Positions 15,283 to 62,885 of a stretch of 64,000 nt of DNA are shown piece after piece. The notes beneath the pieces were generated by a model. The model was not told where the DNA came from. It was given only the letters and a program-made list of their open reading frames with translations, and did no database searches. The first letter of the stretch is position 1, and each line of letters starts with the position of its first letter. The translations under genes and the position numbers were made by a program. Source of the stretch: Asterias rubens (lineage: Eukaryota); assembly GCF_902459465.1 (NCBI RefSeq), contig NC_047064.1, positions 10,618,160 through 10,682,159 of the forward strand. Reading direction: 5' to 3'.

Positions 15283-15935
<653 letters not shown>

Positions 15936-26614: not shown

Positions 26615-26825
26615 GTGAGAATATTATACATTTTTTATTTATTAATTTCGTTGATGATATTCTCTTTCGTTTTCTTGTTATTGTATTTGTTATTTTATGA
26701 AGGGGTGGGGGGATGAGATTCAGTGTACATTTAGTGGTTAATTCATATTAAGACATCTGCTCTAGCAATGCAAAGGTTGTGGGCTCGATTTTTTTCACAG
26801 GACTCTGGAAAGTAGTTTTATAAAA

Positions 26826-30770: not shown

Positions 30771-31341
30771 AGGCTACACATAACCGATTTGGGAAACGAC
30801 CAAAATCAACTGTCACCAGGGGCATGTTGCCATCTACTCCTGGGGCTGAAACAGGGTTATTCCTTTCACAGTCTGCAAGGACGTAGGTATGGGTATCATC
30901 CACTAGGAGCCTGGTTGGTGAAGCAGAATGCACTATATACCTGTAGCCCTCACTTTGGTCATATTCATAGTCAATATTTAAGTCTTTATATTAGTCACAT
31001 TCAAAATGTTCAATATATTTTGAACCATCCTCATAAAAGTGTGGCCGGGTTGGCGGAATGGTATCTTTCCTTGCATTCAACTTCTAGGATACCAGGTGGA
31101 ATCACGCCGAGGGCACTGTAGGCTTTCAGTCTCCACTTGACTGCGTGGGTTTATCCTGGAATAATTCTCTGGGGTTTTCCTCCCACATCTAAAGCTGAAA
31201 CTTCCTTCCTTGTCTTTTCTTCCTTGGGTTCTTGGTTAATACAGTGATTAAGTTTCCCTTTTCTGAGAGTCCTTGGCTTCACAACCACAGTTAATAAATG
31301 AAATGGTTTTTAATTGCACAATTTCCACTTTTTTTAACCAG

Positions 31342-31463
31342 TTGGTAAGGTGCGGAAACAGTGGATGCCAAAAGCCATCTCGCAGCCCGGCTTGGATACG
31401 CTACGAGCAATCAAGAAGCATCTCGACCCTCAGAATATCTTTGGGAATGATTGCCTGCTCTGA
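31342..31463 (+). CDS. AGPS: AGPS terminal coding exon. Encodes VGKVRKQWMPKAISQPGLDTLRAIKKHLDPQNIFGNDCLL*.
   Basis: Matches the human C-terminus [40 protein letters not shown]. Acceptor ttttttaaccag| and stop TGA at 31461-31463. I did not see a canonical AATAAA within ~250 bp downstream. Confidence 0.9.
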
Positions 31464-37290: not shown

Positions 37291-38439
37291 TTTGTCTTTT
37301 CGATAACCAATTAGCTAGTTTTCTGAATTTAATTATGGTGCATTGCCAAAAAGGGCGGCACAGCCACGTAACAGTTTCTTGGCACCGATTTCGCCGTTGG
37401 TGTAACCATACTGTCCCAGTGTCTAGTGGGGGTGACGCGCGGCATCCCGATAGTGAATATTCCCCGCTAGTATAACTAGAAGATCACCAGAGGCTCGTAG
37501 TGCTGTGGTGATGACCAAGCATAGATGAATCAGTGAATGAGTGCGCCATCTGTTGTTTTTTCCCGAACCCGATTTTGTGCACAGCAGAATTGAGGTGGTA
37601 GGTGTCTGCTGATTCAGAAAGAGCTAACAAGTGCATACTCACAACGAACCAGAGCGCCCACAACTTCTTCAAAGTTCCCCAGGTTTGTACTTACTTTGTG
37701 GGTAAGTATAGTCCATCCATCAAATGAATGATAATATACGTACAGTTACTTGAGTGTTTATTATCATAAAAACTTTCTTGGTATAGGGGTAGAGGTTAAT
37801 AGTATAAAACATTGTGGGAAACGGCTCCCTCTGAAGTAATGTAGTTTTTGAGAAAGAAGTAATTTTTCCACGAGTGATTTCGAGACCTCAGATTTAGAAT
37901 TTCGAGGTCTCGAAATCACGGATCTGAAAACACACAAGTGCGACAAGGGTGTTTTTTTCTTTCATCTCGCAACTTGAGCTCAAATTTTCACAGGTTTGTT
38001 ATTTTATTTATGCATACGTTGAGATACACCAACTGTGATGATTTGTCTTTGATAATTTCTAATAATGTCCAGAGTCTTTAAGGGTGAACTGGTGAACTGG
38101 AGGAGAGGTTTGGCTTAATTAAAAACATTTAATATTGTTTAACAACATGCTCAAGTTTCCTTTCCTTCATGATCAAACCATGGCCACCGACGACTCGTTT
38201 GAGACAGCTCGACCATTCCTACAGCGGTTGAGACAGCTCGACCGTTCCTACAACTCGACGAACATTTTTTTCATCTGTCAGAAAACTCGACTTATAATTA
38301 GGACCAAGACAAGTCGATGGATGGCCTCAGCACGGGGCGCGAACAGGGCTGGGAAGGGGGGCGTGTTATAGGGTTAGAAGGGTAAGGATTTACAGGTAAC
38401 TTGTGTAAACATGTCTGTAACAGAGGTAAACTGTTCAAC

Positions 38440-39644: not shown

Positions 39645-39826
39645 GTCGTGAGAGATTCTGTAGTCTAACGAGAGTGTATTTCAAGGAAGCATCTGCGTGT
39701 GTTATCATGTTTGATGTCACGTCTATCAAGTCATTTCAGCATGTAGTCACTTGGAAGAATTTGGTAGATTCTACAGTCTCCCTACGAGATAGGAGTCCAA
39801 TACCTTTTCTGTTACTCGGTAATAAG
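39645..39826 (+). CDS. Rab29/Rab32/Rab38-subfamily small GTPase, internal exon. Encodes (G)RERFCSLTRVYFKEASACVIMFDVTSIKSFQHVVTWKNLVDSTVSLRDRSPIPFLLLGNK.
   Basis: Matches human RAB29 QERFTSMTRLYYRDASACVIMFDVTNATTFSNSQRWKQDLDSKLTLPNGEPVPCLLLANK, which covers the G3 tail and the NKxD G4 box. Donor AAG|gtatgt is clear. The acceptor is assigned to ctctgaag|GT, and the exact 5' boundary is uncertain. Confidence 0.75.
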
Positions 39827-40856: not shown

Positions 40857-40978
40857 TCTGATCTGGACGAACATAAGGTTTCGGATGAAGAGATTAAAGC
40901 AATGTCTGAAGATCATAACTTTGTTGGCTGGAGCAAGATATCAGTCAAAGATAACTACAATCTTGAAGAATCCATGAT
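40857..40978 (+). CDS. Rab29-like GTPase exon. Encodes SDLDEHKVSDEEIKAMSEDHNFVGWSKISVKDNYNLEESMM.
   Basis: Matches human RAB29 CDLSPWAVSRDQIDRFSKENGFTGWTETSVKENKNINEAMRVLIEKMM. Acceptor catttatttag| and donor GAT|gtaagt. A SINE copy ends ~25 bp upstream of this acceptor. Confidence 0.8.
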
Positions 40979-42017: not shown

Positions 42018-42132
42018 GCTCTTGGTCGAGGAGGTTGTAGCGAGGCTTCAGCCCAGAGTTGCAGAGTTTACTATCGATGACGGGAGGATTAAACTGCCTC
42101 ATACTTACAACAAACAAAGCAAGTGTTGGTAG
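42018..42132 (+). CDS. Rab29-like GTPase apparent terminal exon. Encodes (M)LLVEEVVARLQPRVAEFTIDDGRIKLPHTYNKQSKCW*.
   Basis: Acceptor ttggcag| and in-frame TAG at 42130-42132. It continues the hypervariable tail after ...EESMM. The predicted end SKCW* lacks a CC/CXC prenylation motif (see findings). Confidence 0.6.
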
Positions 42133-42989
42133 ATTTTTTAATGATAAATAATAACTCAAGGGCCCGATTTCATAGCTGCAGAGAATATGCTTAGAAGTTG
42201 TCTGCTAAACAGAAATGAGCAGGATACCACATTCTCAAATTTTACAGTAACATCATGGCAGTTTGAATGGTAACCTTATTCTGGTAAGCATAATTTTGTT
42301 GTGCTTAGCTACTTTTTGTGCGTAAGCAGCTCTAGGAAATTGGGTCCAGGTAATTATGCAATAAATTTATACTTAACAAAGTTGTGTCTCCATTTTGTGG
42401 TAACTCACTGGCTGTTTAAGTTCTTGCAACTTTGAACAAAGTGAGTTATTTCTTATGTGTTTGTGGTGCATTTTACTGAAAAACTGCGGTCATAATTTTT
42501 TGCGTGAGCACAAAATCTTGCAAAAAGCAAACATGTTACTGGTCCAAATACCATGTAATGTATCAGGGAACGATTTTGTCCATCAATTTTGCGTACCAAG
42601 AATATTAGACTGAACTTATTTCGAGCACACTGATTTGTAAATTTGAGTTGCAAATCCTGATTTTTGAGTAGCAATTGAAACATTTGGTGTTGCTTTTGCT
42701 CTGCTATACAAAGTAAATCGGCCACTTTGTATCAGATACTCTTTGTGACTGGTTGATTGTTGCTGGGCAGTTACCGTATGCCTGAAAAATGAGTATTTGA
42801 AGTGACAGAAACAGTTCTTCAAAGTTTGTCTATCAAAGCAGTCTTAAAGGCACGGGATGGACACCTTTCATTCATTCATTCAGCCGATGCGATTCATTCA
42901 TTGGTCCTCCATTACTGTACGCAGCTCTTCCCAACGCAGTCTAAGAGTCCCTGCACAAGGTGTCCTTGCACAAGGTGGTCTGCCCCAGG

Positions 42990-43680
42990 AACAGTGACCT
43001 TGAGTAGGGGCCCATAGCACAAGCTAGCTCACTACCAGCTCTGCATGTCTAAGACAGTGACCTGCTTATCTCAGTCTTCTTGCCCTAATCCTGGTGCCAA
43101 CTCTCGGTAGGCCACCATAGAGTTCCAGGTTTGTGACATGCCTCTCCCAATGAATCTGTTTAACACAACGAAGCATTCTTGTATAGCAGCGATCCAGTCT
43201 CTTCTCTAGACGACTGGCCAGTGTCCAGGACTCACATCCGTACGGCAGTACTGATTCCACAGTGGCAGTAAAGAACTTCACCTTCAGGGACTGGGACATC
43301 TGACTTAACCATAATGTTCTTCATGGAGTCGAGTTCCTTTTAGGCAAGAGTGATACGACATTTCACATCTTTCTCGGTGTCATTAACCCACGAGCCCAAG
43401 TATTTGAAATCTGTTACCGAGTTCAGCTCAGAACTGATGGTTGTCTTTTAGGGAGTGGCAGTGGTCTGTTAAATATCATGTACTTTGTCTTCCTGGTGTT
43501 GAGAAATAGCCCCACTCTGGCACATTCGGTCTCTGTTCTTTGCAGAATCAGCTGAGCTTGCTCAATCTCATCAGATATCAGAACGATGTCATCTGCAAAA
43601 TCAAGGTCTGTGATCATGACAGGAGCCACTCGTCTGCTCCTCCTATCAACTGTTCCTCCACTTCTTCCTGGCAAGGATAA
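42990..43680 (-). mobile_element. Degenerate non-LTR retrotransposon reverse-transcriptase fragment.
   Basis: Minus ORF 43423-43674 translates to ...MITDLDFADDIVLISDEIEQAQ...TETECARVGLFLNTRKTKYM (the FADD RT motif). Minus ORF 43066-43299 translates to ...FFTATVESVLPYGCESWTL...LDRCYTRMLRCVKQIHWERHVTN.EL (RT thumb/C-terminal region). The frames are shifted relative to each other, so this is a decayed copy. Confidence 0.8.
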
Positions 43681-44905
43681 TTGTCAAAGACCAGTCTTCT
43701 CAATTGGTGTATCTTTCCGATGCTTGATTCCGAGGTCTCGAAATCAAATTCGTGGAAAATTACTTCTTTCTCAAAAACTATATGTTACTTCAGAGGGAAT
43801 CTTTTCTCACATTTTTGTAGTCTATCAAGTAAGGTTTTATGCTAAAAAAAAATTGATGGGAGACTTTTGGGCGGTCCTTTTTAATAGTTCTCGCCAGTAC
43901 GGGTACAACAGTGAGCATCTGTGTGCACACTTATAGACATTAAAAAGGACAGTTATGTCTGCAGCTGCCAACGTCTCAAAAGTTTCGCATTATTTGTACA
44001 TACAACGTTGTGTGTAACTTGTAAAAATTTAATTTAAACAATACCGCCTTACTTTTGTTTACATAGAGTGACCCTGAGAATTTCAGGCACAACATTTGGA
44101 AATTATTGAATTTGTACCATTTCCCAAAAGCAAAAATGTGATGAAAATCATTCAGAGATGGAAATCATCTTTACTTGTATAATGGTACATGTTCATGTTT
44201 TGTTCTGTCGAGCTGTAAACAATTTGTGATACAGAAAGTTTAGGCTCTGTGTCTCTTAAATCCGCATCTTCAATACTCCACTGATTTATTTTGTCTTCTT
44301 CTGTTTTAGAGAAGAACCTTTATATGAGCTGAAAGCCTGGTTCATACTTCCTGCGAATGCGAAGCGAAGTTCCAATGAATTTGACGTCACAACTCTGTTT
44401 ATGCTGCAAACATTCGCAAGAGTCAAGCACAGCTCAACTCTGCGAATAATTCGTTGCAAATTTCTGATGTCAACATTCGCATTCGCATAAAGTATGAACC
44501 AGAAAACTGTATTAAAGCAGTTCTTTAAAATAAATTAGGTAAATCCATATAGATGCTACTCTCTGACATTTCCATTTATACTGATAAATATAATAAACAA
44601 TATTGGTAACTAAATCTAACAATGCATATAAACATATAATTGTATAGGAAAACCCCACTCTATGAATGTAGGAGTAACTAAGGCAGCTTTTAAAAAACAG
44701 TATAAAAACTTATTTTAGTTTGATTTTGAAAGGAGCTGCCCTTACACAGTCCGCTCTATATAAAGTTTTATCAATAAGTATCGATATAGAACAATAGTAT
44801 TGATGTAAAATTTAAAATTATTTCTTCAATAATCTTGTATAAAATGGTATTGCTGTTGAAATAATGCCACTGATTCACTAAATATCAGTTATTTGGTTTG
44901 ACCTT

Positions 44906-45280
44906 TTAAAGCCATTGGACACTTTCGGTAAACAGTATTTTCCAAAGGCCCACACTTCGTGTATCACATCTTATATATAAAATAACAAACCTGTGAAAAT
45001 TTAGGCTCAATCGGAGTGGGGAGAAAATAACGGGAAAACCCACCCTTGTTTATGCACGTTTCGCCGTGTCATGTCATGTGTTTAAAATAAATCTGTAATT
45101 TTCGATATCGAGAATTGATAATTGTTGTAATGTTTTCTTAAAAAGTAAAGCAGTTCATGGAATGATATTTCAAGAGAAGTCTCTCACCATTACCTTCTGT
45201 AAACCCTGTAGGTTATTTGTAAATCTTTGAACTTTTTTTTTTCTGTTCCGAAAGTGTCCAATGGCTTTAACTTGTGCATA
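44906..45280 (+). mobile_element. MITE-D copy.
   Basis: Runs from ttaaagccattggacactttcggtaaacag to ccgaaagtgtccaatggctttaa. It lies between the Rab-like and PCTP genes. Confidence 0.8.
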
Positions 45281-46401
45281 TCTGTGGAAATTGACTTTCA
45301 ATCATGCCAATGTTGTGCACACACTTTAAGTAGATAGCAGTCCCTGACTGTCAAAAATTACCGCTCTGCATATTTTGAATGTTTGGAAATAACAAAATCT
45401 TAAAACACACACATACTATTTCAAAAGGAACCAATACAATAGTCAAATCCTTAGAAGTTGGACATCTTAAAAAGTTCAAATGTATAGGGTATATCACTTT
45501 GTTTATCACTTTACAATAATAACATTGTTTAAAAAAATTAAATGACAAACAAATTAGAGACCCAAGTAGCTCCTAAAAGTACATAATATATTCTGTACCT
45601 TGTTTTTTTTTAACTGGTCGATTGTTTTAATCTTATTTAAATGTAGACTTTTACAGTACACAATCTGGGAGACGTTACTGTTAGTACCACTTCTCTGATT
45701 CAAATTGTGGGGCATAAAACCAATATCTTTTTACATAATCACATCACTTAGGAGTGAAATGATTCTAAAAATTCTATTATCGAAAGTAAGTTTATATTGC
45801 CATTCATTTTAAGAGTGATAAACAAATGTATACTTTCCCTTTAAAGGCACTGGACACTATTGATAATTGTCAAAGACCAGAATTCTCACTTGGTGTAACC
45901 AAACATATGCATAAAACAACATATCTGTGAAAATTTTGACTTAATTGGTCGTCCAAGTTGCAAGAGAATAATGACCGAAAAACAGCCTTGTGGCACAAAT
46001 TTGTGTGCTTTCAGATGCCTAAAAATTCACTTCGGGCCTGGGGTCTTTAATAATTTTGAGTGAGAATGGCCTCTTTTTCAAAAGCTACGTTACATGTACT
46101 TCAGAGGGAGCCATTTCTCACAATTTTTAAAACTATCAACAGCTCTCCAATTGCTCATTACCAAGCAACTTTGTATGCCAACAGCTATTTTCAATATACA
46201 GTGTATATTTACTTTACGGAACCCACATGAATATATCTACTTGCCAGGTAAAGTTTGTTCTTTGCTAATAACTATAAGTTTTCAAATAAGAAACTACCAA
46301 TAGTGTCCAGTGCCTTTAACATGATTTGCTAAACAAGTATTGCATCTACTGATATCAATAGCAAATTGATTAAGTATTTTGCCGACTACCAACAAACAGC
46401 A

Positions 46402-46500
46402 TCAACTTGTCGTGCCTTTACTCCTTTCCAATTTAGCCAGGTATTCTGGATAACCATTACATGCATCTGTCATGGATTGCATGAAACCAGGAACTCCAGT
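46402..46500 (-). CDS. PCTP: PCTP-like terminal coding exon. Encodes TGVPGFMQSMTDACNGYPEYLAKLERSKGTTS*.
   Basis: Matches human NGVPNFLKDMARACQNYLKKT*. Acceptor gtttcctag| and minus-strand stop TGA (plus-strand tca at 46402-46404). Confidence 0.88.
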   Translation of the reverse strand, partial: TGVPGFMQSMTDACNGYPEYLAKLERSKGTTS

Positions 46501-47041
46501 CTAGGAAACGGTACAAAAAAATATTGATATTTTAAGATTTCATATTTATGTATAACAAACAAAGAATCTTATCACTCTAAAAACTTTGGGCCAGAATTGT
46601 CCCCAGGGGTCTGAACCCAAATCTGTGCCAAACTGACCTAAACCTGTGTCAAACTGACTTATAACCCGAAAAAGAACTTTAGAGTAGTTGCTTAGTAAAG
46701 TGTTATTTTACGTCACTATACAAATCACTATTGTTACACCGACAATTGTTCTTTACAATGAATTTTAATGCTTTGTGAAATGGAGCCCTGCTTTTTCTTA
46801 GAGTAGGAAAAGGCCCAATTTTGAAAATGACAAAACAAAAAATAATAAAGGAGAACAAACCACTGGTGCTTCATAAGCTTTATCCAAATATATTTACCAG
46901 AAACAAACAGGTTGAAATAGAAATTGCAGTATATGCAAATTTTAGCTGATTAATTGTACATTTTCCAACACAAAAGGAACATGAATTGATGAAATTCTTA
47001 TTCCTGAAAACTATTTGATCGCAGTAAAAAAAATGACTTAC

Positions 47042-47109
47042 TTTGGCAGCCCAGTTGACCAGCCATGTTGGTATCATTCCTTTAGGGTTGTCATAGTAAT
47101 GCATGAACG
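47042..47109 (-). CDS. PCTP: PCTP-like exon 5. Encodes AFMHYYDNPKGMIPTWLVNWAAK.
   Basis: Matches human VFMYYFDNPGGQIPSWLINWAAK, the START-domain C-terminal helix region. Acceptor tatctgtag| and donor AAA|gtaagt. Confidence 0.9.
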
Positions 47110-47345
47110 CTACAGATATCAAAGACAATATTGTTAATACAAAGAATTTCAAAAACTTGCAATCGCCCCCGAATGTTGAAATTCCAGTCACATGTTCATT
47201 TCTTCAGGTGAAGTTTACACTAGAAAGCATGTGTTAAATTTAAAAAAACAGAACACGTTTAATTGTTCTGTTTCTTAAAAACTGTTTCTTTTTTTACTTG
47301 GCCTAATGTCATATGCAAAGGGTCTGATCTAACCTATTATATTAC

Positions 47346-47514
47346 CTTTTGAACCATCACCACTTGCTTTGATTGCCATACTTTGCTTGAAATCATCCAC
47401 CCTGATGACACCAGCCACAGGCGGTTTGGAGGCAAAGGGAACACTGCGACCCAGGATCACCCATACGTGCTCATCATTAATTTCAAACTCTCTTGACTCT
47501 CGTATAAACGCGTA
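47346..47514 (-). CDS. PCTP: PCTP-like exon 4. Encodes YAFIRESREFEINDEHVWVILGRSVPFASKPPVAGVIRVDDFKQSMAIKASGDGSK.
   Basis: Matches human YVYLRQRRDLDMEGRKIHVILARSTSMPQLGERSGVIRVKQYKQSLAIESDGKKGSK. Acceptor ttttgcggacag| and donor AAG|gtaata. Confidence 0.88.
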
Positions 47515-48341
47515 CTGTCCGCAAAAGTGTTAAGAAATCCTCAAAATAAAATGTTGAATAAATTTTAAAATAACAAATTGAGATTGTCAAAATGTCAAAG
47601 ATGGACCTAAAGACCAGAAGTTGACCAAAATTATTGGACGAACCCCATTCTGCTCCATTTTCCAATACTGGGAGATAAAGTATGATAAATGAGTCTTTCT
47701 CAATTGTTTATCATTACCTGTGTGTGAATGCCTATAGAACAAAATTTATATATGTGTAGATACATATTTGGTACATGTTTAATTTGATGAAAATGATTCA
47801 AGTTCAGTTTATTATACAAAATATTGAAATTGTTATTTTTCAATATTACAGCAGTCGGCCTGTGAAAAACATCAAACTTGGTTGTTTCGTCTTGGTGATA
47901 ACAATGGAAGCACGTTTAATTTAGCCAGAGACTTGGAGCACAGCAATCAATCTTAATGACTCTATCATTATAAATATTTATAACAAAAATATTCGTCTGA
48001 AGGATGGTTCTGGTAGGAGCTTTTATAGTTAGAAACCTATCTGAATAAACTGATTTTTTTACAGGAATTACCAAACGTGTCTTTATAGACTCATTATTTT
48101 GAATATAAAAAACAATGAGGCCTTAGTTTAGGCACATAATTTCTAATGATATTTATCATGACATCATTCCGCATAAGTTGTCAATTAGAAACAAATAAAT
48201 TAGCTGCTGCACACTGCTCAACCAGCACAAACAAATTGTGATATAATTGCAAAAATTGGTAATGGCTGACATCTTTTTACATAACCACACTACTTAGAAG
48301 TAAAATGTTTCAGAGTGATTCTTCAATAATAAAAAAGATAC

Positions 48342-48421
48342 ATCTCTTGATGACATTGGGAATGGGTAGTTGACTCTCCAGTAAACGCCCTCTCTGTCAC
48401 CATCTTTAACTTTATACAACT
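48342..48421 (-). CDS. PCTP: PCTP-like exon 3. Encodes (K)LYKVKDGDREGVYWRVNYPFPMSSRD.
   Basis: Matches human ELYEQECNGETVVYWEVKYPFPMSNRD. The acceptor is a 16-T tract followed by gcag|, and the donor is GAT|gtatct. Supplied ORF 48294-48512 (-) overlaps this exon but runs on into flanking intron. Confidence 0.88.
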
Positions 48422-49984
48422 CTGCAAAAAAAAAAAAAAAAATATTATTTGAGTTTTCAATTAATAAAAACCGGGTACGGGCCTCTAAACTAATAGGTAT
48501 TGAAAAAAACATGAAATAAAGGTTGTTCTCTCAAAACCATTTTCAGACCTTGAACTTCCCTCTTGAAGGAGCACATCCATTTTTTTTCTGGTCAGGGGCA
48601 ACTCAGGAGATTGATTGACAGCTCTTTTGTTGCCAGGAAAAATTCACCTTAAACCCATCGACCTTAACAGAAATACTTGAAGCAGTAGTTTTCTTATCCC
48701 GATAAATCAAATGGCACATCAACAGCTCCATACCCACTTTTAATTTGAGGAAAACAAATGATATATATTTGAACTAATGTCCCCCCCCCAAAAAAAAAAT
48801 AATAAATAATAAATAAATTAATTATTTAATAAAAAAATAAATTTATAATTAAATAAAGCATAAATAAAAAAATTAAAATTTTAAATATACAAAATAAAAC
48901 AAAAATTATGAGAGGACCTAAATTTCGTTCCTATAAAAAATAATTAGTTGTTTTCCCAAAAAATAATACTGTTTAGCTCCTTTAAATTAGTCATTCATTT
49001 TCTCAAACAATTATTGTGTTCCTATGAAAAAAAATTCCCAGCAAGTTTCACTCCGAATTCATTGTTTCATGCTTTTAGACAGCCGAGCAGATTGACTCAG
49101 ACGCACAATTTGGGGTCTGGTTCTATCGGAAATGTTCACAGTCCTCATATGTTAAGAGCGTCAAGTCAGTAAAGGCAGATGGAAAAGAGCGTCGGATTAA
49201 TGTTGCGTAATCCAGTAAGTAGGAAAAAACGGTGTTTGACGCTCCACACACCGTGCAGTATGCCTACACAGTACTCCACATCAGTTGCAACTTAGCAAGG
49301 GCGGGCTGGAAAAGAGTTGGCCTAATGACAATTATGAAAGTCTCTGGTAAGTGAAATATTTGTCAAAGTGATTCCACATTTTATAGTTGTTCATTTAGAT
49401 GAGTAAGCTTCAAAATTTCCATCATTTTCCAACAGTATGCCGTAAATTCTGAAAAGATTGCTAAACTAAAAGTAAGTAAATAAGTCTTCAGAAATCCTCA
49501 TTTGAGCGGCTAAAAAGTGAGCACTTAATTCAAAATTGTTCTACTCCATTTTCCAGCATTTTTTAACCGTAGCCAAAACATGAATTAAATGGTTTGAACA
49601 ACTTCAAGTCAGTGGTTTTTCTCGTACTTCATTATGAAAGTGTAGCCCAAACAACATACCGCAGGTTAGACCTAAAGTGGATGTCTATGGTAACCAAGTT
49701 CCTGAGAATTGTAAGGTTATAGGCGGATCTGAGAACACTTTTATATAAACAATAATAAACACTCACTTCATACAACAGGACATATGGCTTCCCTGTACTA
49801 CATTATTGGTTGGGTGGGATGGGGTCACATTTCTTTTATTCATTGAGAAAGAAGAATCATTCATCATGTTTTTGTGAATGTGGTTTTACAACGCATAAAC
49901 TTGCGTTTTGGGTTGACCTGGCAGGGTCAAAATTCCCTTTATTTACAATTTTTACGGTTAAAGGAACACGGATCAGACGAGTCG

Positions 49985-50800
49985 GTCTACAAAAAGCGTT
50001 TGTAATTGATTTGTTCCTAGGTCTTTAATAGTAAATTGATTTGTTCCTAGGTCCTAGTGAATTGATTTGTTCCTAGTGAATTGCATGTTTCCTAGGTCCT
50101 AGTGAATTGAATTATTTCTACGTCTTAGTGGGTTGATTTGTTCATAGGTCTTAGTGGGTTGATTTGTTCCTAGGTCTTAGTGAATTGAGTTGTGCCTAGA
50201 GATTGAATTTCTCCTAGGTCTCAGTGAATTGATTTGTTCATAGGTCTTAGTTGGTTGATTTGTTCCTAGGTCTCAGTGAATTGAGTTGTTCCTAGAGATT
50301 GAACTGTTCCTAGGTCCTAGTGAATTTAATTGTTCCTAGTGAATCGAGTTGCGCCTAGGTCTCAGGGAATTGAATTGTTTCTAGTTCTCGGTGAATCGAT
50401 TTGTTCCTAGGTTCTAGTGAATTGAATTATTCCTAGGTCCTAGTGAATTGATTTGTTCCTAGTGAATTTAATTATTCCTAGGTCCTAGTGAATTAATTTG
50501 TTCCTAGTGAATTGATTTGTTCCTATACAGTATGTCTTAGTGAACTGAATTTTTTCTAGGTCCTAGTAGATTGAAATGTTCCTAGGTACAACAAAAACTG
50601 ATTTGTTCATATTGATTTTTTCCTTAGTAAAATGATTTGTTCCTATCAAGGTCATTGTGAACTGATTCTCCCATGTTCCAGTGAATTGATTAAATCATAA
50701 AGTCCAGGTAAACTGATTTGTTCCTAAGTCACCGTGATTTGATTTGATTTGATCATAGCTATCAGTAAATTGATTTGGTACATAATCTTTTATGGGTCTC
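49985..50800. repeat. Satellite array of a ~26-28-bp unit (~28 copies) in PCTP intron 2.
   Basis: Imperfect tandem units of GTTCCTAGGTC(C/T)TAGTGAATTGA(T/A)TTG. Confidence 0.85.
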
Positions 50801-52854
50801 GAAGACTCGGTTTGCTCCTTATAAAAACAGACCCTGGTCTATGGTAAAAGGAAGCTGTACAACGCTTTAAGGAGGTACGCTTAATATAAGAAAAATTGCA
50901 TTCCTGTGTCACTCCCAAAAAGTATTAGAAAACAACGCAAGTATTTTTTTTTCTTGAAAGACTTTTTTCTTGTTTCAAGGATACAATGCAGTGTAAAATG
51001 AACCGGTTTTGTGTTCAGTAACTGCAAATTCAAATGTTTCCAAGTGATAAACTAAGGGAAACTGACTGGGTTACATGTATATGATGTTGGGTTGAACAAA
51101 GAAGAAATTACTAATGTTCAGTCTTTTCTGTTCAGTTCTAATCTTGTTTTCATGGGGTGATATTGCTAAACTCTTATCATTAGCTGGAGAGCTTTAATCC
51201 GATTATTGAATTCTTTGGACAGATAAAGGTAAAGCCAATTATCTCACATGAGTTATAAAGCTAAAGAAAGGCCACACAGAAAGGCAAAGTTATGATTTAA
51301 GTTTAAAAGTAACTCATGTCGCTTTTTAGTTTTCTTCATATCCTCTTCTAATATCAAATTCTGAACTTTGTTGGATAACTTTTGTGTTTATTTATTGTAA
51401 CAAAAGCTCATAACAAAGGCAGGGCAGTTTGGCATTTTGTTGAAAATCATTTGATCATTTAAGTATTTTATCTGTGTTATTGATCATTACATGTATGTCA
51501 TTGTATAAATATGTATATTAGGCATTAGGTGCAGTTAAAAGTCTATTCAGTTTGGGGCAATAGGTATTATGTGTAACCCCAGATCTTAAAAGTTGAGATA
51601 TAATCATTTAAAACTTGTAAGAAACCATCCAGCAGGACCTGTCTTTGCTCTGATATGCACTATTTCTGTGAAATCAGTTTTTGTGATAATATGCACTATT
51701 TCTGTGAAGTGCATCTTTTGTCTTAATTTAAACAATAAAACTATGCTTTGAATGTTGGAAAGAAACAAATTGCAAAACCTCAGCCAAATCATCTGATTGT
51801 TGCTCATAGATGTACGTGCATGCACGTCACAAGCACATAATATTTTAGGCTTTTTCAAAGGTGTGTACACAAACATGGGAGTGCACACAAATGCAGCTCA
51901 CAGTACATGCTCTACTCAGTACACGTGTACACGTACATGTAGATCTATGGGTTCAACACGTACTGTACAACTACAATACTACTGGTATTACTATAATTGT
52001 TATTATTATGATTCTTAAATGACATAAATGGTAATTAAAAACTGCTGAGTAAGACTACAGTTTACAATGTTAATGAAATACTAAGGGAAAAAAACACTGA
52101 CAATACAATAATGGAGAGGGGGGCTTGTGCCAGTCACCCCCCCCCAGCCCTGATCCCCAATTTGGACCCAGACCTTTGAGATTCAACACTACCTATGATA
52201 AGCTTTCATGTGGTATTAAAACTGTTTTTCTATTTACACACTGACAATGTAATTTGAGATTAAAAAATTTGAGGACGACCAAAAGTAAAAAGGTACATTT
52301 AATAAGCTTTTTGACAATACTAATTAAACTCTGCGTTTAATTGTTGAAAACTATTTTCTATACTACGCAAAACAAAAATCCAGTTGTTCGTCCCCACTCC
52401 CCTCCATCATCCTTTGTTTGAGGGCGCCGCCCCCTTTTTTTCTTTTTCTTTTTTGAACAAATTTTCGGTGTACATTATTTCTCATTTAACTAACTAATCT
52501 TTGAAGAACTTGTAAACTACATAAGGTAGGTGGTGACTTTAAACTGAAGAATTTGTGGCCAGTTTGAAATAAAATGCTTGGTGACCACCTTAAGAAATAC
52601 AAAATAAAAAGACCCTCATCCCTTTTGGAAAAACCTGGACGATCACTGGTATACTTCTTGGCCTTCATACACACTAATGTAATTTGATGTTACCTCCACC
52701 TCAAACTTGCTTTCAAGAATTAAGAAATGGCATAACAAGAGCGCTGAAAAGGAGCACACGGGTCATTGCGTAGATTGTAGGAGTGAGGTTAAGAAAAATT
52801 AGCCAAGAGAGCCCCTCTATACAAAATGAAGTAATCATATTGTGCCTAATTTGT

Positions 52855-54420
52855 TTAAAGCCATTGGACACTTTCGGTAAACAGTGTTGTCCAAAGGCCC
52901 ACTCTTCATGTATCACAACTTGTATAGGGTACGTTCAGACGTGGGGTTAAACTAGTCCTTAATCCGAGCACCGCGGGTGTCCAAAAGATAAACATGACTT
53001 AGTCCAAAATTGGCTTGCGTTCACACAGTGAGTTTATTCTGGTCAAGCGGACTAAACTAGCCCACGATGTTGATTATTGGGTCATGCATCGGCGAACCTT
53101 ACCATTGCTGGTTCCGGTTTGTTACATTGTCCATGCGTTTTCCACAGGGTTTCGATCCGCTATCGTTTCTACGAACCTCATGGTCATCATGTATTCCATC
53201 ATTAAAGACGGCAAAATCACTTCATATCCTTGCTTGGCCCCAGCACAAACGCAATTCTATTGTGCCCGCTGAAGTTTCCGTTCCGCACTGCCCTCGATGA
53301 ACGAAACATTTACACGTTGTTGTTGAAAGCTTCAAATTATTTTCGAGTGTGAACTTTTGTAAATATATCACAACTTGGTCATTAAGAAGTCGTAGCCTAC
53401 ACACATTCTCATGTTACGTTAAAAATTGTTTTTCAATTCAACATTAGTCTGCTACTCGTATAACTGTTACGTAAAGTTGTTGAGGGCAGGAACCAGATAC
53501 AACCTAGTTTTCGAACCCAAACTTTGGTCTTAATTGTCGATCCCGTGTGTAGCTTAGCTGTGATTAGATGCCACTTTCTTCAAAGCAAAACCCGTTCGTT
53601 ATCATAAAGTAGCGTTGCACACAGAAGAAGTGAATTTAAAAACTAAATAGTGCTACTAAAAATGAGAACTTGTTTTCGTGCGACGTCCATTTCAAACATT
53701 TTCGGCGAAGGGGAATACCGGGGCCCCAACACTTAATGGTAACATAAAGGGAAGGCAGCGGAGAGACGCAAGGAGATATTATATAGCTCCATGGATTCAT
53801 GAAGACACCACCCAATACTCGCTGCCGATCCATCCATACACGTGGAATGACGTCACCTTTGTTGCCGCGGTCATTTGGGCTAAAATAGACCGGAAGTAGC
53901 AGGTCAGTTGCGTTCCAACGATGGTTTACTGGGCCTCGCAGCGGGGGGTTGGTCGTAAAACCTGGGCTAAGTTTATTGTCTAGTCCACCAATTTTTTTGG
54001 TTTAGTTTAGCCCAGCTCAGTGGGTCAAATTAACCCTCGCGGACCAGAATATTGCGTTCACACGCAGGGTTAGTTTAGCACTTTTGGATTAAGGACTAGT
54101 TTAACCCCACGTCTGAACGTACCCATATAAAATAACAAACCTGTGAAAATTTAGGCTCATTCGGTCATCGGAGTCGGGAGAAAATAACGGGAAAACCCAA
54201 CCTTGTTTCCGCACGTTTCGCCGTGTCATGACATGTGTTTAAAATAAATCCTTAATTCTCGATAACGAGAATTGATAATTGTTTTAGTGTTTTCTCAAAA
54301 AGTAAAGCATTTCATTGAATAATATTTCAAGAGAAGTCTTTCACCATTACCTTCTGTAAACCCTGTAAGTTATTTGTAAATCTGTGAACTTTAATTTTTT
54401 TCTTTCTAGTCAGAAAGTGT
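52855..54420 (+). mobile_element. MITE-D copy interrupted by the nested insertion above.
   Basis: The 5' part at 52855-52920 and the 3' part at 54121-54420 are collinear with the intact copies at 4760-5080 and 44906-45280. Confidence 0.8.
52921..54120. mobile_element. Non-autonomous TIR DNA transposon (~1.2 kb) nested inside a MITE-D copy.
   Basis: The ends are ~45-50-bp terminal inverted repeats: gggtacgttcagacgtggggttaaactagtccttaatcc... at 52921 and its reverse complement ending at 54120. Long subterminal inverted repeats share the core gcgttcacac. The host MITE continues on both sides, and compared with uninterrupted copies the join carries 3 extra bases (tat/ata), implying a 3-bp TSD. 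Confidence 0.75.
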
Positions 54421-54524
54421 ATAATGGCCTTTTTTTTGCCATTGAGTTGAGGGCCTTCATGTGAGGCCAGGTTGGGGTCTTTTTAAAGTTACCCTCTGTA
54501 AGATGTTTTGGGGGCTAGAAAAAT

Positions 54525-54860
54525 ACAAAGTGATTGGAGCGGGACTAGAACCTGCGACCTCCGGATTATTGTGCCCGCGCTTTACTAACTGAGCTATTCG
54601 GTGCTTATGTTGGCGGTGTCCCTTTTTTGTCAAATTCTTTGTTCAGGGGTGCCACTCAGATGCAATACAACCTGTAACTGCTGTAAAGCCACAGATCACA
54701 CTCCCAAGTTGATTTCAAATATTAAGTACAAAAAACACAAGGGACACCAACTTGGTAAATTCTTAAGTTAATTTTTGGTTGGAAAAAGAAAAATTTACTA
54801 GAGCGGGACTTGTGCCGACGCTTTAACAACTGAGCTTTTAAGTCCTATAAATGTTCGTGT
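54525..54860 (-). pseudogene. Two tRNA-like remnants within a ~270-bp tandemly duplicated unit.
   Basis: The first (54531-54610 on the minus strand) reads gcaccgaatagctcagttagtaaagcgcgggcacaataatccggaggtcgcaggttctagtcccgctcc. Its A-box TAGCTCAGTTAGT and B-box GGTTCTAGTCC are intact, but the acceptor stem does not pair. A degenerate second copy lies at 54790-54855. Confidence 0.45.
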
Positions 54861-55047
54861 TAGAGCCTTTTGCTGGTCTCCCCATTTTGTCAATGTGTTT
54901 GTTCGGGGGCGACAGTCAATTTTACTTGTGGTTTATATAACTTTATACCTTAAAATATAATGACAACCTATTTCGACAATCTCTTGAAAAATAAGTTGAA
55001 AAAGTTCAGCAGTCTGCTAGGGGGATAAAGATGGGGAATCATACTTA

Positions 55048-55165
55048 CTGTTGACATAACTGTCCCATGTTTTCCGGTACTCCAGATCAACATACACCTT
55101 GGCGCAAGTCTCTGGTCCAACACCACTTAATGTCCCAAATACCTTGTATTCATACAATCCTGAGT
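55048..55165 (-). CDS. PCTP: PCTP-like exon 2. Encodes DSGLYEYKVFGTLSGVGPETCAKVYVDLEYRKTWDSYVN(K).
   Basis: Matches human GLYEYKVFGVLEDCSPTLLADIYMDSDYRKQWDQYVKE. Acceptor ttttgag| and donor ACA|gtaagt, both on the minus strand. Confidence 0.88.
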
Positions 55166-55744
55166 CCTCAAAACCAATGAAAAAATAATTTACTGTTAAT
55201 AAAATGTATCTTTAAAAAAAAATAACAATTTTGGTTAGATTTAGTAAGTTAGAAAAGTATTGTTCATGACACAGTAATTATTGCATGTAGCATTTTTATA
55301 TACTAACGCCAATCATAGCTATCACCCCAGCATGACAGGAATTATTATGGACAAATATAGTTCTTCTGCATCCCACACCAAGGTCAAAGTAACTTTTGTT
55401 AAATTTTCTAAGCAATAGAAATTCTTTGTTGAAAATGTTGGAGGAGTTACATGATATTTTTAAATATGAAACTTTTGTAATTTGACGCTCGATGACGTCA
55501 AAACTTGTAATGGTTACATCTACTACTTCTACTCATTACATAGTTTGAAGTAGGTTTGCTAAGTATTTTGGTCAATCACTGTCAATGAAGACACTCGATG
55601 TATAGCAAGTAGAAAATGGAACTTGGTCTAAAGGGACTGTAACTTGGTCTAAACATGCTAAATGACGAAAAGACCACACCAAACACACACGATTGTAATT
55701 CAGGACTCTCCACAATGACAATAGTAATATCAGTGAATGCTTAC

Positions 55745-56290
55745 GTCTTCATAGAACCTTCTGTACCATGCAGCCATGATACACGTACTTCACAAAGCTA
55801 ACAAAGGCAATTGCCTCCATGCCCCCTGGTCATTGCCTTGGTGCCCTTGAAACGTTACAGTTGAATTTTTACAATTTCCTCGTAGGGTGCCCTTTACCAA
55901 GAAGAAAATGCCAAGGTGCCATTGCCCTTTCAAAACGGAAGCATACTGTACAGGCCTGCATGGATGTTGCAGGTCTCGAACAGCACCCACAGCAATTTCC
56001 GTGGTGCCCTTTGATTGCTGTGGTAATATTAGTGACAGCCTGTACGGAAGTCTCCATCAGAACCTTCCACAGTTGTATCATGCAGCCATGGACAAGCCTG
56101 ACACTTCACATTTAAGGCAACAAAGGCGATTGCCTCCATGCCCTTACCTTGGTGCCTCTGAAAAGTTCCAGGACAAGTTTACATTTTCACCATACATGTA
56201 CGTGAAGAGTGTCCCTTACCAGAGGAAAATTATTGTGCCCCTTCAAAAGCAAAAAGGCCCGGTGTTGACTGCTATGTTGCGCTACGGGTA
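55745..56290. repeat. Tandem duplication of a ~330-bp unit containing ~40-bp GGTGCCC... sub-repeats.
   Basis: The segment 55745-56075 repeats at 56075-56290. The recurring motifs ggtgcccttgaaa, ggtgccctttaccaagaag and gtgccccttcaaaag explain supplied ORFs 55819-56115 and 55887-56330. Confidence 0.7.
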
Positions 56291-56503
56291 CAATGTATGG
56301 GTGCACTGTAATTTGAATAGACTTACATGATTCGTAACATCACGCATGCTTCCCACCCTGTGTATCAAGTGCATCAAGTTGCAGAGCTAGAGTTTGAAAT
56401 AAACAACGCACCACAGCACATGGCAGATTCAACATGGCACTTATTAACCATAACGGGTTGATTGAGTTGAGCCATGGAAGCGCTACCTGTCCAGCCTAAT
56501 AAG

Positions 56504-56884
56504 AGTTGAAGGCAGTGGACACTATTGGTAATTACTCAAAATAACTATTAGCATAAAACCTTTATTGATTACGAGTAATCGGGAGAGGTTGATGGTATAA
56601 AACATTGTGAGAAACGGCTCCCTCAGTAGTTTTTGAGAAAGAAGCAATTTTCCACGAATTTGATTTTGAGACCTCAAGTTTAGAATTTGAGGTCTCGAAA
56701 TCAAGCAGTTGAAAGCACACAACTTCGTGTGACAAGGGTGGTTCTTCTTTCATTGTTATCTCGCGAGTTCGATGACCGATTAACCTCAAATTTTCACAGG
56801 TTTGTTATTTTATGCATATGTTGAGATACACCAACTGTGAAGGCTAGTCTTTGACAAGTACCAATATTGTCCACTGCCTTTAAA
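56504..56884 (-). mobile_element. MITE-C copy.
   Basis: Lies in PCTP intron 1. Confidence 0.8.
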
Positions 56885-57539
56885 CTTTACAACTCCTCCC
56901 CTGTCCCCACTCCCAAAGTATGTCTTGATGAGTGGCCTGTTCTTGTGATCCAGTTCTAGTTTGATCCAGATTCTTGTTTGATACAGATCTCTTCTCCATC
57001 CATGTGTATGGACAGTATTCAAGTTGCGACATCAGCGACTACGCTAACAAAATCAAGACAAGGCCTACACCCAACTTTCCTCCATGCCCCAATCAAGTGT
57101 TCACAATATACTGCAGTCTGTCTTTTTAGGACAATAATGATAAATAGGCCTACAAATCCTATCGATGAACATTTGACTTGACCTTGAACTTACAACGTAT
57201 AGATCTATCACAATATGGACAATCAACTTCAGCCGGCTAGATAATAAATCAGGCACTAACATCATGACAATTATGAGTTGATCAAGCATAGACTTGTGGA
57301 CAAGTCTTTAAATGTCTGTCGCAGTAAGCGTTCCCCGCGATTCCTCGGTATTCTCGCGCCCAATATTAACGACTTATCCACAAGTCTAATCATGCATTGC
57401 AATGCATTTTTAACAAATACATTATTTGTAAAGACAGAATTTATCACCACAGTTTAAGTTCCTACATGTTGTTTAATTTCACTAAAACTAAGGTTTAACA
57501 ATAATGTTAACGACACCTAGCCCACCTTGTTGAGCTGTT

Positions 57540-57685
57540 AATGGCTCCGCTTTTAACATTGGTCTCGTCACTGTCACCATTACATTGTAATGGTGACAGT
57601 GATGAGACCGATGTTGTAATGGTGACAGTGATGAGACCGATGTTGTAATGGTGACAGTGATGAGACCGATGTTAAAAGCGGAGCC
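57540..57685. repeat. 29-bp tandem repeat (GTAATGGTGACAGTGATGAGACCGATGTT)x3 with an inverted-repeat flank.
   Basis: ggctccgcttttaacattggtctcgtcactgtcaccattac is the inverted complement of the unit. It lies immediately left of the MITE-F arm. Confidence 0.8.
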
Positions 57686-57689
57686 ATTA

Positions 57690-58790
57690 AAGGAACACGT
57701 TGCCTTGAATCGCCTTGGATCGGACGAGTTGGTCTATAAAAAGCGTTTGAAACCGTTTGTTATGAAATGCATGGTTAGAAAGATATTTTAAAAGTATAAT
57801 GATCCACACAAGTACCACTCAAAATTGCACGGTTTTCTTTTTACGTCGCGAACTAAGCACAACTACTCCATTGGTGACAGTATAATCCAGACAGTAAGTG
57901 AAGAAAGAGATCTTGGGGTAATCATCCATCAGTCACTAAATGCAAGTACCCACTGTGCGAAGGCAGTCAAAAGCGCATTCAGAGCCCTGGGGCTAATCAA
58001 CAGAACCATTACGAACAAAGACAAAACAACAATCATCAGACTGTACAAAGAACTGGTTAGACCACACCTAGATTACTGTGTTCAGGCGTGGAGGCCTCAT
58101 CTTCAAAGGGACATTGACCAAATAGAAAGAGTGCAAAAGAGAGCGTTGCGAATGATTGGAGGTCTATCTCACCTAGACTACGTTCACAGACTCAGGGAAG
58201 TGAAATTGACCACCCTGGAGTGCAGGAGGCTGCGAGGAGATCTTATCGAGACCTTTAAGATACTCAGGGGCCTTGAGGGCTTGAACCCGGAACACTTCTT
58301 TGATTTGTCAACCGTGCAGCACAGGGGTCACCAACTTAAACTGTACAAATCAAGATCCAACCTCAACCTCAGGAAGTTCTGGTTTACCCAGAGAGTGGTC
58401 AACTACTGGAACATTCTCCCTCGAAAAGCAATTGAAGCTTCAAGTGTGAACATTTTCAAGGGACATGTGGATAAATTCCTAAAGAACGTCGGGGGGCTCT
58501 ACATAAGCTTATCTAAGCTGTCTGCCCCAGTAACCAGAACCACCGTCTCCTCCCCAGTTGTGTGATGGCGTCGGTGGGTTCAAGTAAGTTCAAGTAAGAC
58601 CGTGTTAGTCGACGAGGTAAAAAGAAAACCACGCAATTTCGAGGCATATTTTTGTGTGGATCATTGTATTCTACTTTTACAACATCTTTCTAACCATATG
58701 CATTTTATAACAAACGGTTACAAAACGCTTTTCAAAGACCAACTCGACCGATCCAAGGCAACGTGTTCCTTTAACAGCTCAACACAGAAG
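57690..58790. mobile_element. Composite element in which MITE-F arms flank the CR1 ORF2 3' fragment.
   Basis: The left arm at 57690-57840 and the right arm at 58600-58790 are inverted copies of each other and of the 26126-26512 arms. The 759 bp between them (57841-58599) is the CR1 RT tail. Confidence 0.8.
57841..58599 (+). mobile_element. CR1/L2-like LINE, 3' end of ORF2 (RT C-terminal domain) plus a short 3' tail with (ttcaagtaag)x2.
   Basis: Supplied ORF 57825-58565 translates to ...LDYCVQAWRPHLQRDIDQIERVQKRALRMI...TLECRRLRGDLIETFKIL...HRGHQLKLYKSR...RKFWFTQRVVNYWNILP...FKGHVDKFL. This is the classic CR1-clade ORF2 C-terminus (RRLRGDLI, FFTQRVV..WN.LP). Confidence 0.85.
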
Positions 58791-58894
58791 GTTTAGCACA
58801 TTTCATGGATTTGATACGGCAAATGGTTTCCATGATATGATAACATGAAGAAACGCTTCCGGTTGTTTGAGTTTTAATACGTTAGTGAATTTAC

Positions 58895-59014
58895 CTCTTG
58901 ATATTTGCGGTAGATCTGTACACCTGAAGACTCAACAAAGAACTCATAGTCCGAAATTCTTGGATTGTCCAGCTCAGAGCAAGCTTCTTCAAATTCTTCA
59001 TCCGTGAAGTCCAT
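58895..59014 (-). CDS. PCTP: PCTP/StarD2-like START-domain protein, first coding exon. Encodes MDFTDEEFEEACSELDNPRISDYEFFVESSGVQIYRKYQE.
   Basis: Minus-strand ATG at 59014. Matches human PCTP ...SEEQFWEACAELQQP...WQLLVETSGISIYRLLDKKTG. Donor GAG|gtaaat on the minus strand (plus-strand atttac at 58889-58894). Confidence 0.85.
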
Positions 59015-59446
59015 TGCTAATTATCAGTGTAATGTATTGTTAAGATTATGGAGGAGGAGAAGCAACAAACCTGTATGTCAACAACAAAAATAAATGTCAA
59101 TGCGAGTAAATGGCGCCCTCTCTTGGCAAGAATTGTTTTCACTACGGGTGGGTGTGTCATCACACATAAACTCCCATAGACATGTGCAAAATAATTCCTA
59201 ACTATTCAAAAGTTAGAAGTCTCAAAGCTTTCTACAGTAAAAAGAAGAGTACTCATTTACTCTTAAACTTTAACCTACTACTCAACTTAATACGCGGAGT
59301 CCCAGTTCCCTTCGAGTTACCCCCCCCCCCCCCAGTTGTTGTTTCAATTAATGTGCGATCATCAATATTTTGAAAAGTAATCTCCGGTCCTTTGTCCAAA
59401 AGTCCAAATATCACCATTTATTTAAGGGCCTTTATCATCCAAATTA

Positions 59447-59770
59447 CCTTTAAAGCCATTATACACTTTCGGTACAGAAAAGAAGAAGTTCACAGATTTA
59501 CAAATAACTTACAGGGTTTACAGAAGGTAATGGTGAAATAGTTCTCTTTAAAAATATTATTCCATGATATGCTTTACTTTTTGAGAAAACATTAAAACAA
59601 TATCAATTCTCGATAGCGAGAATTACGGATTTTTTTTAAACACATGTCATGACACGGCGAAACTTGCGGAAACAAGAGTGGTTTTCCCGTTATTTTCCCC
59701 CGACTTTTGTTATTTTATATATAAGTTGTGATACATGGACAATACCGTTTACCGAAAGTGTATAATAATG
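59447..59770 (-). mobile_element. MITE-D copy.
   Basis: Collinear with 4760-5080 in reverse orientation. It sits 430 bp upstream of the PCTP start codon. Confidence 0.75.
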
Positions 59771-60850
59771 GCTTTAAGTTGGAAGTCAACAACCCACTTG
59801 TCACAATACTGGGCAACATTTTTACACAGTATTCATTTTCTAGGGTTTCAAGTCTCTTTATAATATGAGGCCAATGCTAAACTCCCTATACTAGACGTGT
59901 GCAGCACCCATACGAGTGGCAACGCTGCATCCATCCAGTGAAGTGCAAAAGGAAGCGCTGAATCACAAAACAACAACGCTTGAATGATATAATGCACAAA
60001 CTATGAAGTAGAAGCCTCGCGATATCTTGAAACAAAAGGCCGTATAAAAAAGAAACATGGTTAGCGCCTGGGTTTCTAAAAAAAAGGTGGAGGAGGTGCT
60101 TTTTGTTTTTATTTTTTGTTTCAAGATGACTACCATTCTTTTAAAATTTCAAAAATTCATTTTTCGTCTGTTCAAACTCACAATAAAAAATGAAACATGC
60201 TGAACAAGACATTGAACAAAACAAAACATATTTATATATATTTTTTTTTAAGTTAAGTATTTTTTTGATGAGACCATTAAAAAAAAACATTAAAAAAAAT
60301 CTTTAAAAAAGTAGGCGGCCCCTTAAAAAAGGAAGCGGGCCAAATACAAATAATATTTCATTAGCTCTCACGTCTTGAAGAAGGTTGATTATGTCACTTA
60401 TCTCAGAGGTATGGTCCATCGTCCATTTTGGCTTCAATGGTCCAAAAGTTTTGGCTAGGGTGTTTCCCCCATTTCCCCCATCCTGTTCACGATGACTATT
60501 AACCAAACGCCCATAAAGATAAATACGTTTACAACCCTGATGGTCATTGTTAGGCGTATAGTAATGTGAGATAAGGTGGTAAACTAGGCTGCAATTAATA
60601 TCGTACTATGAACCAGTTCGCTTGGGCCTACAGTTTTCTTGTTGTCACGAGTCAACATACAATGGTACACTCGTATATTAGTCAACCTGCCCTGATGCGC
60701 AACGAGTTAGAAAATAAGGAACAATCGGTTGTATATTTTCTTGGAGTGTTAAACAAATTTAATTGTCAATTCATGATTTTTGTTTTAAAGGTCTAGCGTA
60801 AAAGTCTTGCCATGCCAACCAATAAGAATTATGTGACGAGACGGGACGAA

Positions 60851-61660
60851 ATTAAAGGCAGTGGACACTATTGGTAATTACTCAACATAATTATTAGCAT
60901 AAAACCTTACTTGGTAACGAGTAATGGGGAGAGATTGATGGTATAAAACATTGTGAGAAACGGCTCCCTCTGAAGTGACATAGTTTTCGAGAATGGAGTA
61001 ATTTTCCACGAATTTGTTTTCGAGACCATTGCGGTCTCGAAATCAACCATCTAAACGCACACAACTTCGTGTAACAGGGGTGTTTTTTCTTTCATTAATA
61101 TCTCGCAACTTCGATGACCGATTGAGCTCAAATTTTCACAGGTTTGTTATGTTATGCATATGTTGAGATACACCAATAATGTCCAGTGTCTTTAAGCAAT
61201 GATAAAAATGTGATTGTCATCAAATTTCACGAGAGATTGACAACAATTTTCTCAGCTCTATGTTGTGGGAAACGGCCCCTCTGAAGCAACGTAGTTTTTC
61301 GAGTAAGATGTAATTTTCCACGAATTTCATTTCGAGACCTCAGATTATAATTTTGAGGGCTCGAAATCAAGCATCTAAAAGCACACAACTTCGTGTGACA
61401 ATTTCTTTTTCATTGTGCCTATTATCTCGCAACTTCGATAACCAATTGAGCTCAAATTTTCACAGGTTTGTTATTTTATGTCGAGATACACCCAAGGAGC
61501 AGACTGGTCTTTGACAATTACCAATAGTGTCCAGTGTATTTAAAGAAGACACACAATGTTTTATACTTTCAACCTCTCCCCCATCATTACTCGTTATCAA
61601 ACAAGGTTTTATGCTAATAATTATTTTGAGTAAGTACCAATAGTGTCCACTGCCTTCAAG
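60851..61660 (-). mobile_element. Two adjacent MITE-C copies plus a partial third.
   Basis: The segments 60851-61200, 61200-61553 and 61553-61660 together form a cluster upstream of PCTP. Confidence 0.75.
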
Positions 61661-62512: not shown

Positions 62513-62885
62513 AGCCATTGGACCCTTTCGGTTCAGAAAAAAAAAAGTTCACAGATTTACAAATAACTTACAGGGTTTACAGAAGGCAATGGTGAAAGAC
62601 TTCTCTTGAAATATTATTCCATGAAATGCTTTACTTTTTGAGAAAACAGCAAAACAATATAAATTCTCGTTAACGAGAATTACGGATTTATTTTAAACAC
62701 ATGCTATGACACGGCGAAACGCGCGGAAACAAGGGTTGGTTTTTCCGTTGTTTTCTCCCGACTCCGATGACCGATTGAGCCTAAATTTTCACAGGTTTGT
62801 TATTTGATATAGAAGTTGTGGTACACAAAGTGTGGGCCTTGGACAACACTGTTTACCGAAAGTGTCCAATGGCTTTAAATGATTA
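62513..62885 (-). mobile_element. MITE-D copy.
   Basis: Runs from ctttaaagccattggaccctttcggttcag to ccgaaagtgtccaatggctttaaa. It directly abuts a MITE-C copy at 62163-62512. Confidence 0.75.

Follow-up and report, generated by a model that had tools for sequence, protein, structure and literature searches.

Human phosphatidylcholine (PC) transfer protein (PC-TP, the product of PCTP/STARD2) holds the phosphate of its ligand through Tyr72, Arg78 and Gln157 and the choline in a cage made of Trp101, Tyr114, Tyr116 and Tyr155 (PMC10182070, PMC13525633), and Trp186, Trp190, Tyr84 and Tyr105 have been proposed to guide the head group from the membrane (PMC13525633). The human variant R120H lowers PC transfer, and the mammalian protein acts through ligand-dependent binding of partners such as PPARδ (PMC10182070). 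PCTP, STARD7, STARD10 and CERT belong to one subfamily of START (StAR-related lipid transfer) domain proteins, that for phospholipids and sphingolipids, and STARD7, a protein of 370 amino acids, is 25% identical to PCTP (PMC3634439). Here, we describe a START-domain gene of the starfish Asterias rubens that lies within a 64,000-nucleotide stretch of contig NC_047064.1 (assembly GCF_902459465.1, positions 10,618,160 to 10,682,159 of the forward strand). This whole stretch is called the window below, and all coordinates are positions within it. We put the probability at about 94% that the locus, at 46402-59014, is the A. rubens PCTP/STARD2 orthologue, a six-exon minus-strand gene whose 217-amino-acid, single-START product works as proposed below.

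An earlier note on this DNA, made from the sequence alone, had proposed a complete PCTP-like gene on the minus strand with a product of 217 amino acids, one that would not be visible as a single open reading frame (ORF). This proved to be correct, with one adjustment. Once exon 2 is moved by one base, the six coding exons, spread across 12.6 kb, join into an intact coding sequence (CDS) of 654 nt (217 codons plus TGA), and the longest ORFs touching the gene encode 103 and 72 amino acids. Five of the six exons had been placed exactly. The remaining one, exon 2, had been given as 55048-55165, while its correct position is 55049-55166: intron 1 runs up to 55167, the last base of its acceptor AG, and intron 2 opens with its donor GT at 55048. 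Because the earlier range was shifted by one base, the first base of the exon was lost, one donor base was gained, and the concatenated CDS lost its frame, reading ...YQETQDCMNTRYLGH followed by a stop codon. The coding exons are as follows:

58895-59014, minus strand: exon 1, coding part, with the ATG at 59012-59014; codons 1-40, phase 0 end, donor gtaaat
55049-55166, minus strand: exon 2, 118 nt, acceptor ...tttgag, donor gtaagt; DSGLYEYKVFG...YRKTWDSYVN, with Tyr65 and Arg71 inside
48342-48421, minus strand: exon 3, 80 nt, acceptor t16gcag, donor gtatct; product KLYKVKDGDREGVYWRVNYPFPMSSRD, with the cage residue Trp94
47346-47514, minus strand: exon 4, 169 nt; YAFIRES...VIRVDDFKQSMAIKASGDGSK, holding Tyr107, Phe109, Phe148 and Gln150
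47042-47109, minus strand: exon 5, 68 nt; product AFMHYYDNPKGMIPTWLVNWAAK, with Trp178 and Trp182, the counterparts of human Trp186 and Trp190
46402-46500, minus strand: exon 6, coding part, 99 nt including the TGA at 46402-46404; C-terminal helix TGVPGFMQSMTDACNGYPEYLAKLERSKGTTS

With exon 2 corrected, all five introns follow the GT..AG rule and have pyrimidine-rich 3' ends; their lengths are 3728, 6627, 827, 236 and 541 nt and their phases 0, 1, 0, 1 and 0, so that the 3.7 and 6.6 kb estimated earlier for introns 1 and 2 agree with the measured values. In-frame stop codons (TGA TAA) are found four codons upstream of the ATG. Two of the five conserved blocks quoted in the earlier note, YEYKVFG and VIRV, are literally present in the product, whereas the other three were the human versions; the starfish counterparts read YWRVNYPFPMSSRD, NPKGMIPTWLVNWAAK and GVPGFMQSMTDAC. 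Vertebrate PCTP has six coding exons; a literature search on the exon number of vertebrate PCTP returned nothing relevant.

The corrected product is identical, at 217 of 217 residues, to XP_033624987.1, a RefSeq protein predicted by Gnomon and named phosphatidylcholine transfer protein-like isoform X2 (Asterias rubens). NCBI has therefore annotated this gene already and arrived at the same exons: it is an ordinary, conserved and already known gene. The match also marks the window as DNA of the common starfish. RefSeq also holds an isoform X1 (XP_033624986.1, 238 amino acids), which matches X2 through …NWAAK and then continues as VSHFFYCDQ…NIFG. This C-terminus equals ORF 46880-47191, in which a retained intron 5 replaces the C-terminal helix of X2:

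46880-47041, minus strand: intron 5 read-through within ORF 46880-47191, encoding the alternative C-terminus ...WAAKVSHFFYCDQ...NIFG of X1

The placement of the protein in the PCTP family is carried by several lines of comparison. The only Pfam match is to START (PF01852; E = 3.9e-25, 88.9 bits with a cut-off of 22), covering residues 33-202 and profile positions 31-204 of 207. The architecture is minimal: the 217 residues (about 214 in PCTP) contain START only, and the alignments with orthologues begin at residue 1-3. Among PDB sequences, human PCTP (1LN1, 7U9D) is the best match (E = 7.6e-65, 222 bits); in the HMMER alignment, starfish residues 3-202 lie on human residues 8-210 with 98 of 200 positions identical (49%) and two small gaps only, in line with the collinearity with the 214-residue human protein that the earlier note had claimed. 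STARD10 comes next (E = 3.1e-13, 53 bits), followed by CERT (about 2e-4, 24 bits). In the forward half of a reciprocal best-hit check, the kind of check suggested in the earlier note, PCTP is thus far ahead of its paralogues.

A search of a database of 5.8 billion proteins, from which the 120 best matches were considered, gave the same picture. All informative names among these matches were PCTP or PPCT, the remainder being "hypothetical", and the species ranged from a sponge and cnidarians to mammals; no protein named STARD7 or STARD10 was found among the 120. Identity was highest in Acanthaster (72%), followed by a brittle star (67%) and by hemichordates, crinoids and sea urchins (59-63%). 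Molluscs, amphioxus, Nematostella, Amphimedon and most vertebrates had 45-58%, with most vertebrates, the cnidarians and the sponge at 45-55%. Among the 120, A. rubens was represented by the gene's own cluster only, as would be expected of a single orthologue. An alignment of 16 species, again from sponge and cnidarian to mammal, contains 42 invariant columns, including Y65, R71, D75, W94 and Y107.

An AlphaFold2 model built on this 16-species alignment (pLDDT 92.7, pTM 0.86) shows a helix-grip fold with nine main strands, an additional 3-residue strand and a long helix at residues 177-214. When the model was run through Foldseek against the PDB, the top 50 matches were all START-domain structures. 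The first was human PCTP, 1LN1 (TM 0.87/0.93, rmsd 1.7 Å over 203 columns, 48% identity), and the second was STARD10 (TM 0.76/0.68, 25% identity), with CERT after it at 18-21% identity.

Compared with human PCTP, the starfish protein is alike in being START-only, in its near-equal length, in its fold and in its 49% identity; it differs in an N-terminus that is shorter by about 5 residues, in a short extra C-terminal tail rich in Lys, Ser and Thr, and in having Phe in place of Tyr116 and Tyr155 and Ser in place of Arg120. Human STARD10 (6SER, 291 amino acids) and STARD7 (370 amino acids) belong to the same subfamily, share the helix-grip fold and both handle PC. However, both are longer proteins with extensions, only about 25% identical. 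STARD7 was judged by its published figures, and the starfish protein, with its 217 residues, its 49% identity to PCTP and no N-terminal extension, does not fit them.

The residues that contact the head group can be followed in the HMMER alignment. The phosphate ligands Tyr72, Arg78 and Gln157 correspond to starfish Tyr65, Arg71 and Gln150 and are all conserved. The cage residues Trp101, Tyr114, Tyr116 and Tyr155 correspond to Trp94, Tyr107, Phe109 and Phe148, so that four of four positions are aromatic. The proposed guiding residues Trp186, Trp190, Tyr84 and Tyr105 are conserved as Trp178, Trp182, Tyr77 and Tyr98. Human Asp82, which the 2002 structure paper reportedly describes as the partner of Arg78, is conserved as starfish Asp75. 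By analogy with the human protein, we infer that one PC molecule would be held in a closed tunnel, with its phosphate bound by Tyr65, Arg71 and Gln150 and its choline in the cage of Trp94, Tyr107, Phe109 and Phe148, while the helix at the C-terminus (residues 177-214) would serve as a membrane-contacting lid. Such a cytosolic single-domain protein would carry or sense PC between membranes as its mammalian counterpart does; its binding, transfer and physiological role are all read across from that counterpart.

Other explanations of the locus have to be weighed against this one. The protein could belong to a STARD7, STARD10 or CERT-like branch rather than to PCTP, given that all four are in one subfamily (PMC3634439) and that STARD10 and CERT are detectable relatives. 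This is very improbable in our view, as the scores fall from 222 bits for PCTP to 53 for STARD10 and 24 for CERT, and the identities from 48-49% to 25% and 18-21%, respectively. STARD7 has 370 residues and 25% identity to PCTP, whereas the starfish protein has 217 and can be aligned with PCTP from its third residue onwards, and the best 120 matches include neither a STARD7 nor a STARD10 name. Equally slim is the chance that the gene is a decaying or non-functional copy, intact in appearance only. The heavy transposon invasion of its introns and the degenerate look of the convergent Rab-7L1-like neighbour (both described below), together with the annotation of an intron-retaining isoform, could be taken as signs of a pseudogene. 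Yet the frame is free of stops and frameshifts, every splice site is canonical, and the orthologue of Asterias amurensis, also 217 amino acids long, departs from the A. rubens protein at no more than 5 residues. In addition, the 42 columns invariant in 16 species, which are kept in the starfish by definition, include functional residues, and no cluster of A. rubens other than the gene's own appears in the best 120 matches.

More weight, though still little, is given to the possibility that the gene is a true PCTP orthologue whose product in echinoderms chiefly senses lipid and regulates partner proteins, or accepts a broader range of ligands, instead of being a bulk PC carrier. The mode of action of mammalian PC-TP, through ligand-dependent partners such as PPARδ (PMC10182070), and the starfish replacements Y116F, Y155F and R120S relative to human would suit this idea, which seems unlikely to us: there is no specific indication of it in the sequence, a cation-pi cage is still formed with Phe, and no member of the phosphate triad is lost. 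A related proposal appears rather less likely again: the protein would be something other than a simple PC carrier, with Y116F, Y155F and R120S altering its ligand range, or with the intron-5-retaining isoform X1, which lacks the putative lid helix, being a regulated inactive or dominant-negative form. Some of these observations do count against the assignment we prefer. Two cage Tyr residues are Phe and human Arg120 is Ser113 in the starfish, so that a strict specificity for PC cannot be taken for granted; moreover, the XP_033624987.1 model is itself a prediction. On balance, we retain the PCTP/STARD2 orthologue with a PC carrier or sensor function.

Around this PCTP gene, the 3' region and the sequences flanking exon 2 have features of their own. 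A pattern search downstream of the stop codon found no AATAAA within 1.4 kb; the candidate poly(A) signals below come from pattern search only:

46046-46051, minus strand: candidate poly(A) signal ATTAAA, 350 nt 3' of the stop
45626-45631, minus strand: second candidate poly(A) signal ATTAAA

An inverted repeat pair with arms of 61 nt (54127-54187 and 56753-56813, 84% complementary) brackets exon 2, and its arms are parts of two interspersed repeats lying in opposite orientation in introns 2 and 1. This pair might favour exon 2 skipping or back-splicing; since exon 2 is 118 nt long, the frame would be lost on skipping.

Transposable-element debris fills introns 1 and 2, the large ones. The earlier note had listed a CR1 fragment, MITEs, a nested DNA transposon and a satellite, and the locus does contain a CR1 3' fragment, interspersed repeats, a nested transposon with terminal inverted repeats (TIRs) and a tandem array. 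In the list below, LINE and SINE stand for long and short interspersed nuclear element and MITE for miniature inverted-repeat transposable element; entries without a strand are unoriented:

57858-58490, plus strand: CR1-type LINE fragment, 5'-truncated, in intron 1 and in antisense orientation to the gene; inside ORF 57825-58565
57681-58780: foldback or MITE-like element, whose inverted arms of about 175 nt (57681-57856 and 58605-58780) enclose the CR1 fragment
56506-56884: interspersed repeat of about 380 bp in intron 1, SINE/MITE-like and present at least 15 times in the window
52927-54124: non-autonomous DNA transposon of 1198 bp in intron 2, with perfect 39-nt TIRs and a 3-bp duplication, ATA
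50004-50777: tandem array in intron 2, with a unit of about 22-26 bp and a higher-order period of 45/96 bp

The CR1 fragment is 44% identical over 212 amino acids to the C-terminus of avian CR1 ORF2 (tblastn, E = 2e-52). It should be noted that this CR1 assignment is a strong lead and not a database result; Pfam returned noise only on the intron 1 ORF, and no Pfam model covers the region of the fragment. The arms of the foldback element are 78% identical over 186 nt (blastn), and several further arm copies are clustered at 26129-27153. The 1198-bp element has TIRs that are 100% identical at both ends (GGGTACGTTCAGACGTGGGGTTAAACTAGTCCTTAATCC) and is nested in an interspersed repeat (52854-52926 plus 54125-54431), uninterrupted copies of which, at 44905-45268 and 62535-62879, represent empty sites in the same window; the element looks like a recent cut-and-paste insertion. 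For the tandem array, the clear part extends over 50004-50525 (TRF) and a degenerate tail reaches to about 50777 (self-blastn), a total of about 0.5-0.8 kb; the 800-bp satellite of the earlier note was thus generous, if defensible. Intron 1 also contains a perfect tandem repeat of 29 bp x 3.1 (TTGTAATGGTGACAGTGATGAGACCGATG) at 57585-57673, and a 47-nt hairpin (57538-57584 and 57644-57690, 96% complementary) that is partly built from it. An Rfam search over 44000-61000 gave no matches, be it to snoRNAs, miRNAs or other RNA families, in the introns or elsewhere.

The PCTP gene stands tail-to-tail with a Rab-like gene, as had been noticed earlier: 3457 bp separate the PCTP stop from the last CDS position of this plus-strand neighbour, 42944. 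An exhaustive HMMER search identified it as XP_033624655.1, ras-related protein Rab-7L1-like (Asterias rubens; 197 amino acids, 100% identity). A word-index search, which gave two ENA fragments, had suggested a Rab gene without an annotated A. rubens protein, and this was overturned by the HMMER match. Its exons are:

about 35382-35447, about 37602-37700, 39645-39826, 40857-40978, 42019-42124 and 42925-42944, plus strand: Rab-7L1-like exons, with the TAA at 42942-42944

The Pfam Ras match of this protein covers profile positions 57-160 of 162 only, compared with 1-160 in sea-urchin Rab-7L1. The protein has neither the P-loop nor switch I, carries 'YFEGRE' in place of the Rab 'WDIAGQE', and ends in ...SLPNAV, with no Cys prenylation motif. 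Neither a P-loop exon nor a Cys-terminated exon was found in the window with regular expressions or with tblastn using sea-urchin Rab-7L1 and Rab32, Rab7 and Rab1 sequences. The P-loop region is missing as well from the Rab-7L1-like protein of Patiria miniata (XP_038066438.1, 201 amino acids). From these features, the neighbour has the appearance of a degenerate GTPase. It might be a decayed paralogue or a pseudogene, or the model might be mis-stitched.

Further features were observed in the rest of the window:

43066-43674, minus strand: LINE reverse-transcriptase fragment in the 3.5-kb spacer of the two convergent genes (Pfam RVT_1, E = 6e-7, FADD motif)
31338-31460 and 15433-15597, plus strand: FAD-linked oxidase exons upstream of the Rab gene
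5866-5939, plus strand: predicted tRNA-Ser(AGA), ARAGORN

The last of the FAD-linked oxidase exons has a Pfam match to FAD-oxidase_C (E = 6.5e-8), and its product reads ...KHLDPQNIFGNDCLL up to the stop codon. The gene may be one for alkylglycerone-phosphate synthase (AGPS), which it resembles.

In the case of PCTP, a multi-exon animal gene was reconstructed from raw sequence almost to the base in the earlier note. Beyond this quality control, the result is of little importance, the locus being a conserved, housekeeping-type lipid-transfer gene that was in RefSeq already. For the family, it adds one more data point for PCTP being ancient in animals, with orthologues from a sponge and cnidarians to mammals recovered in the same search.

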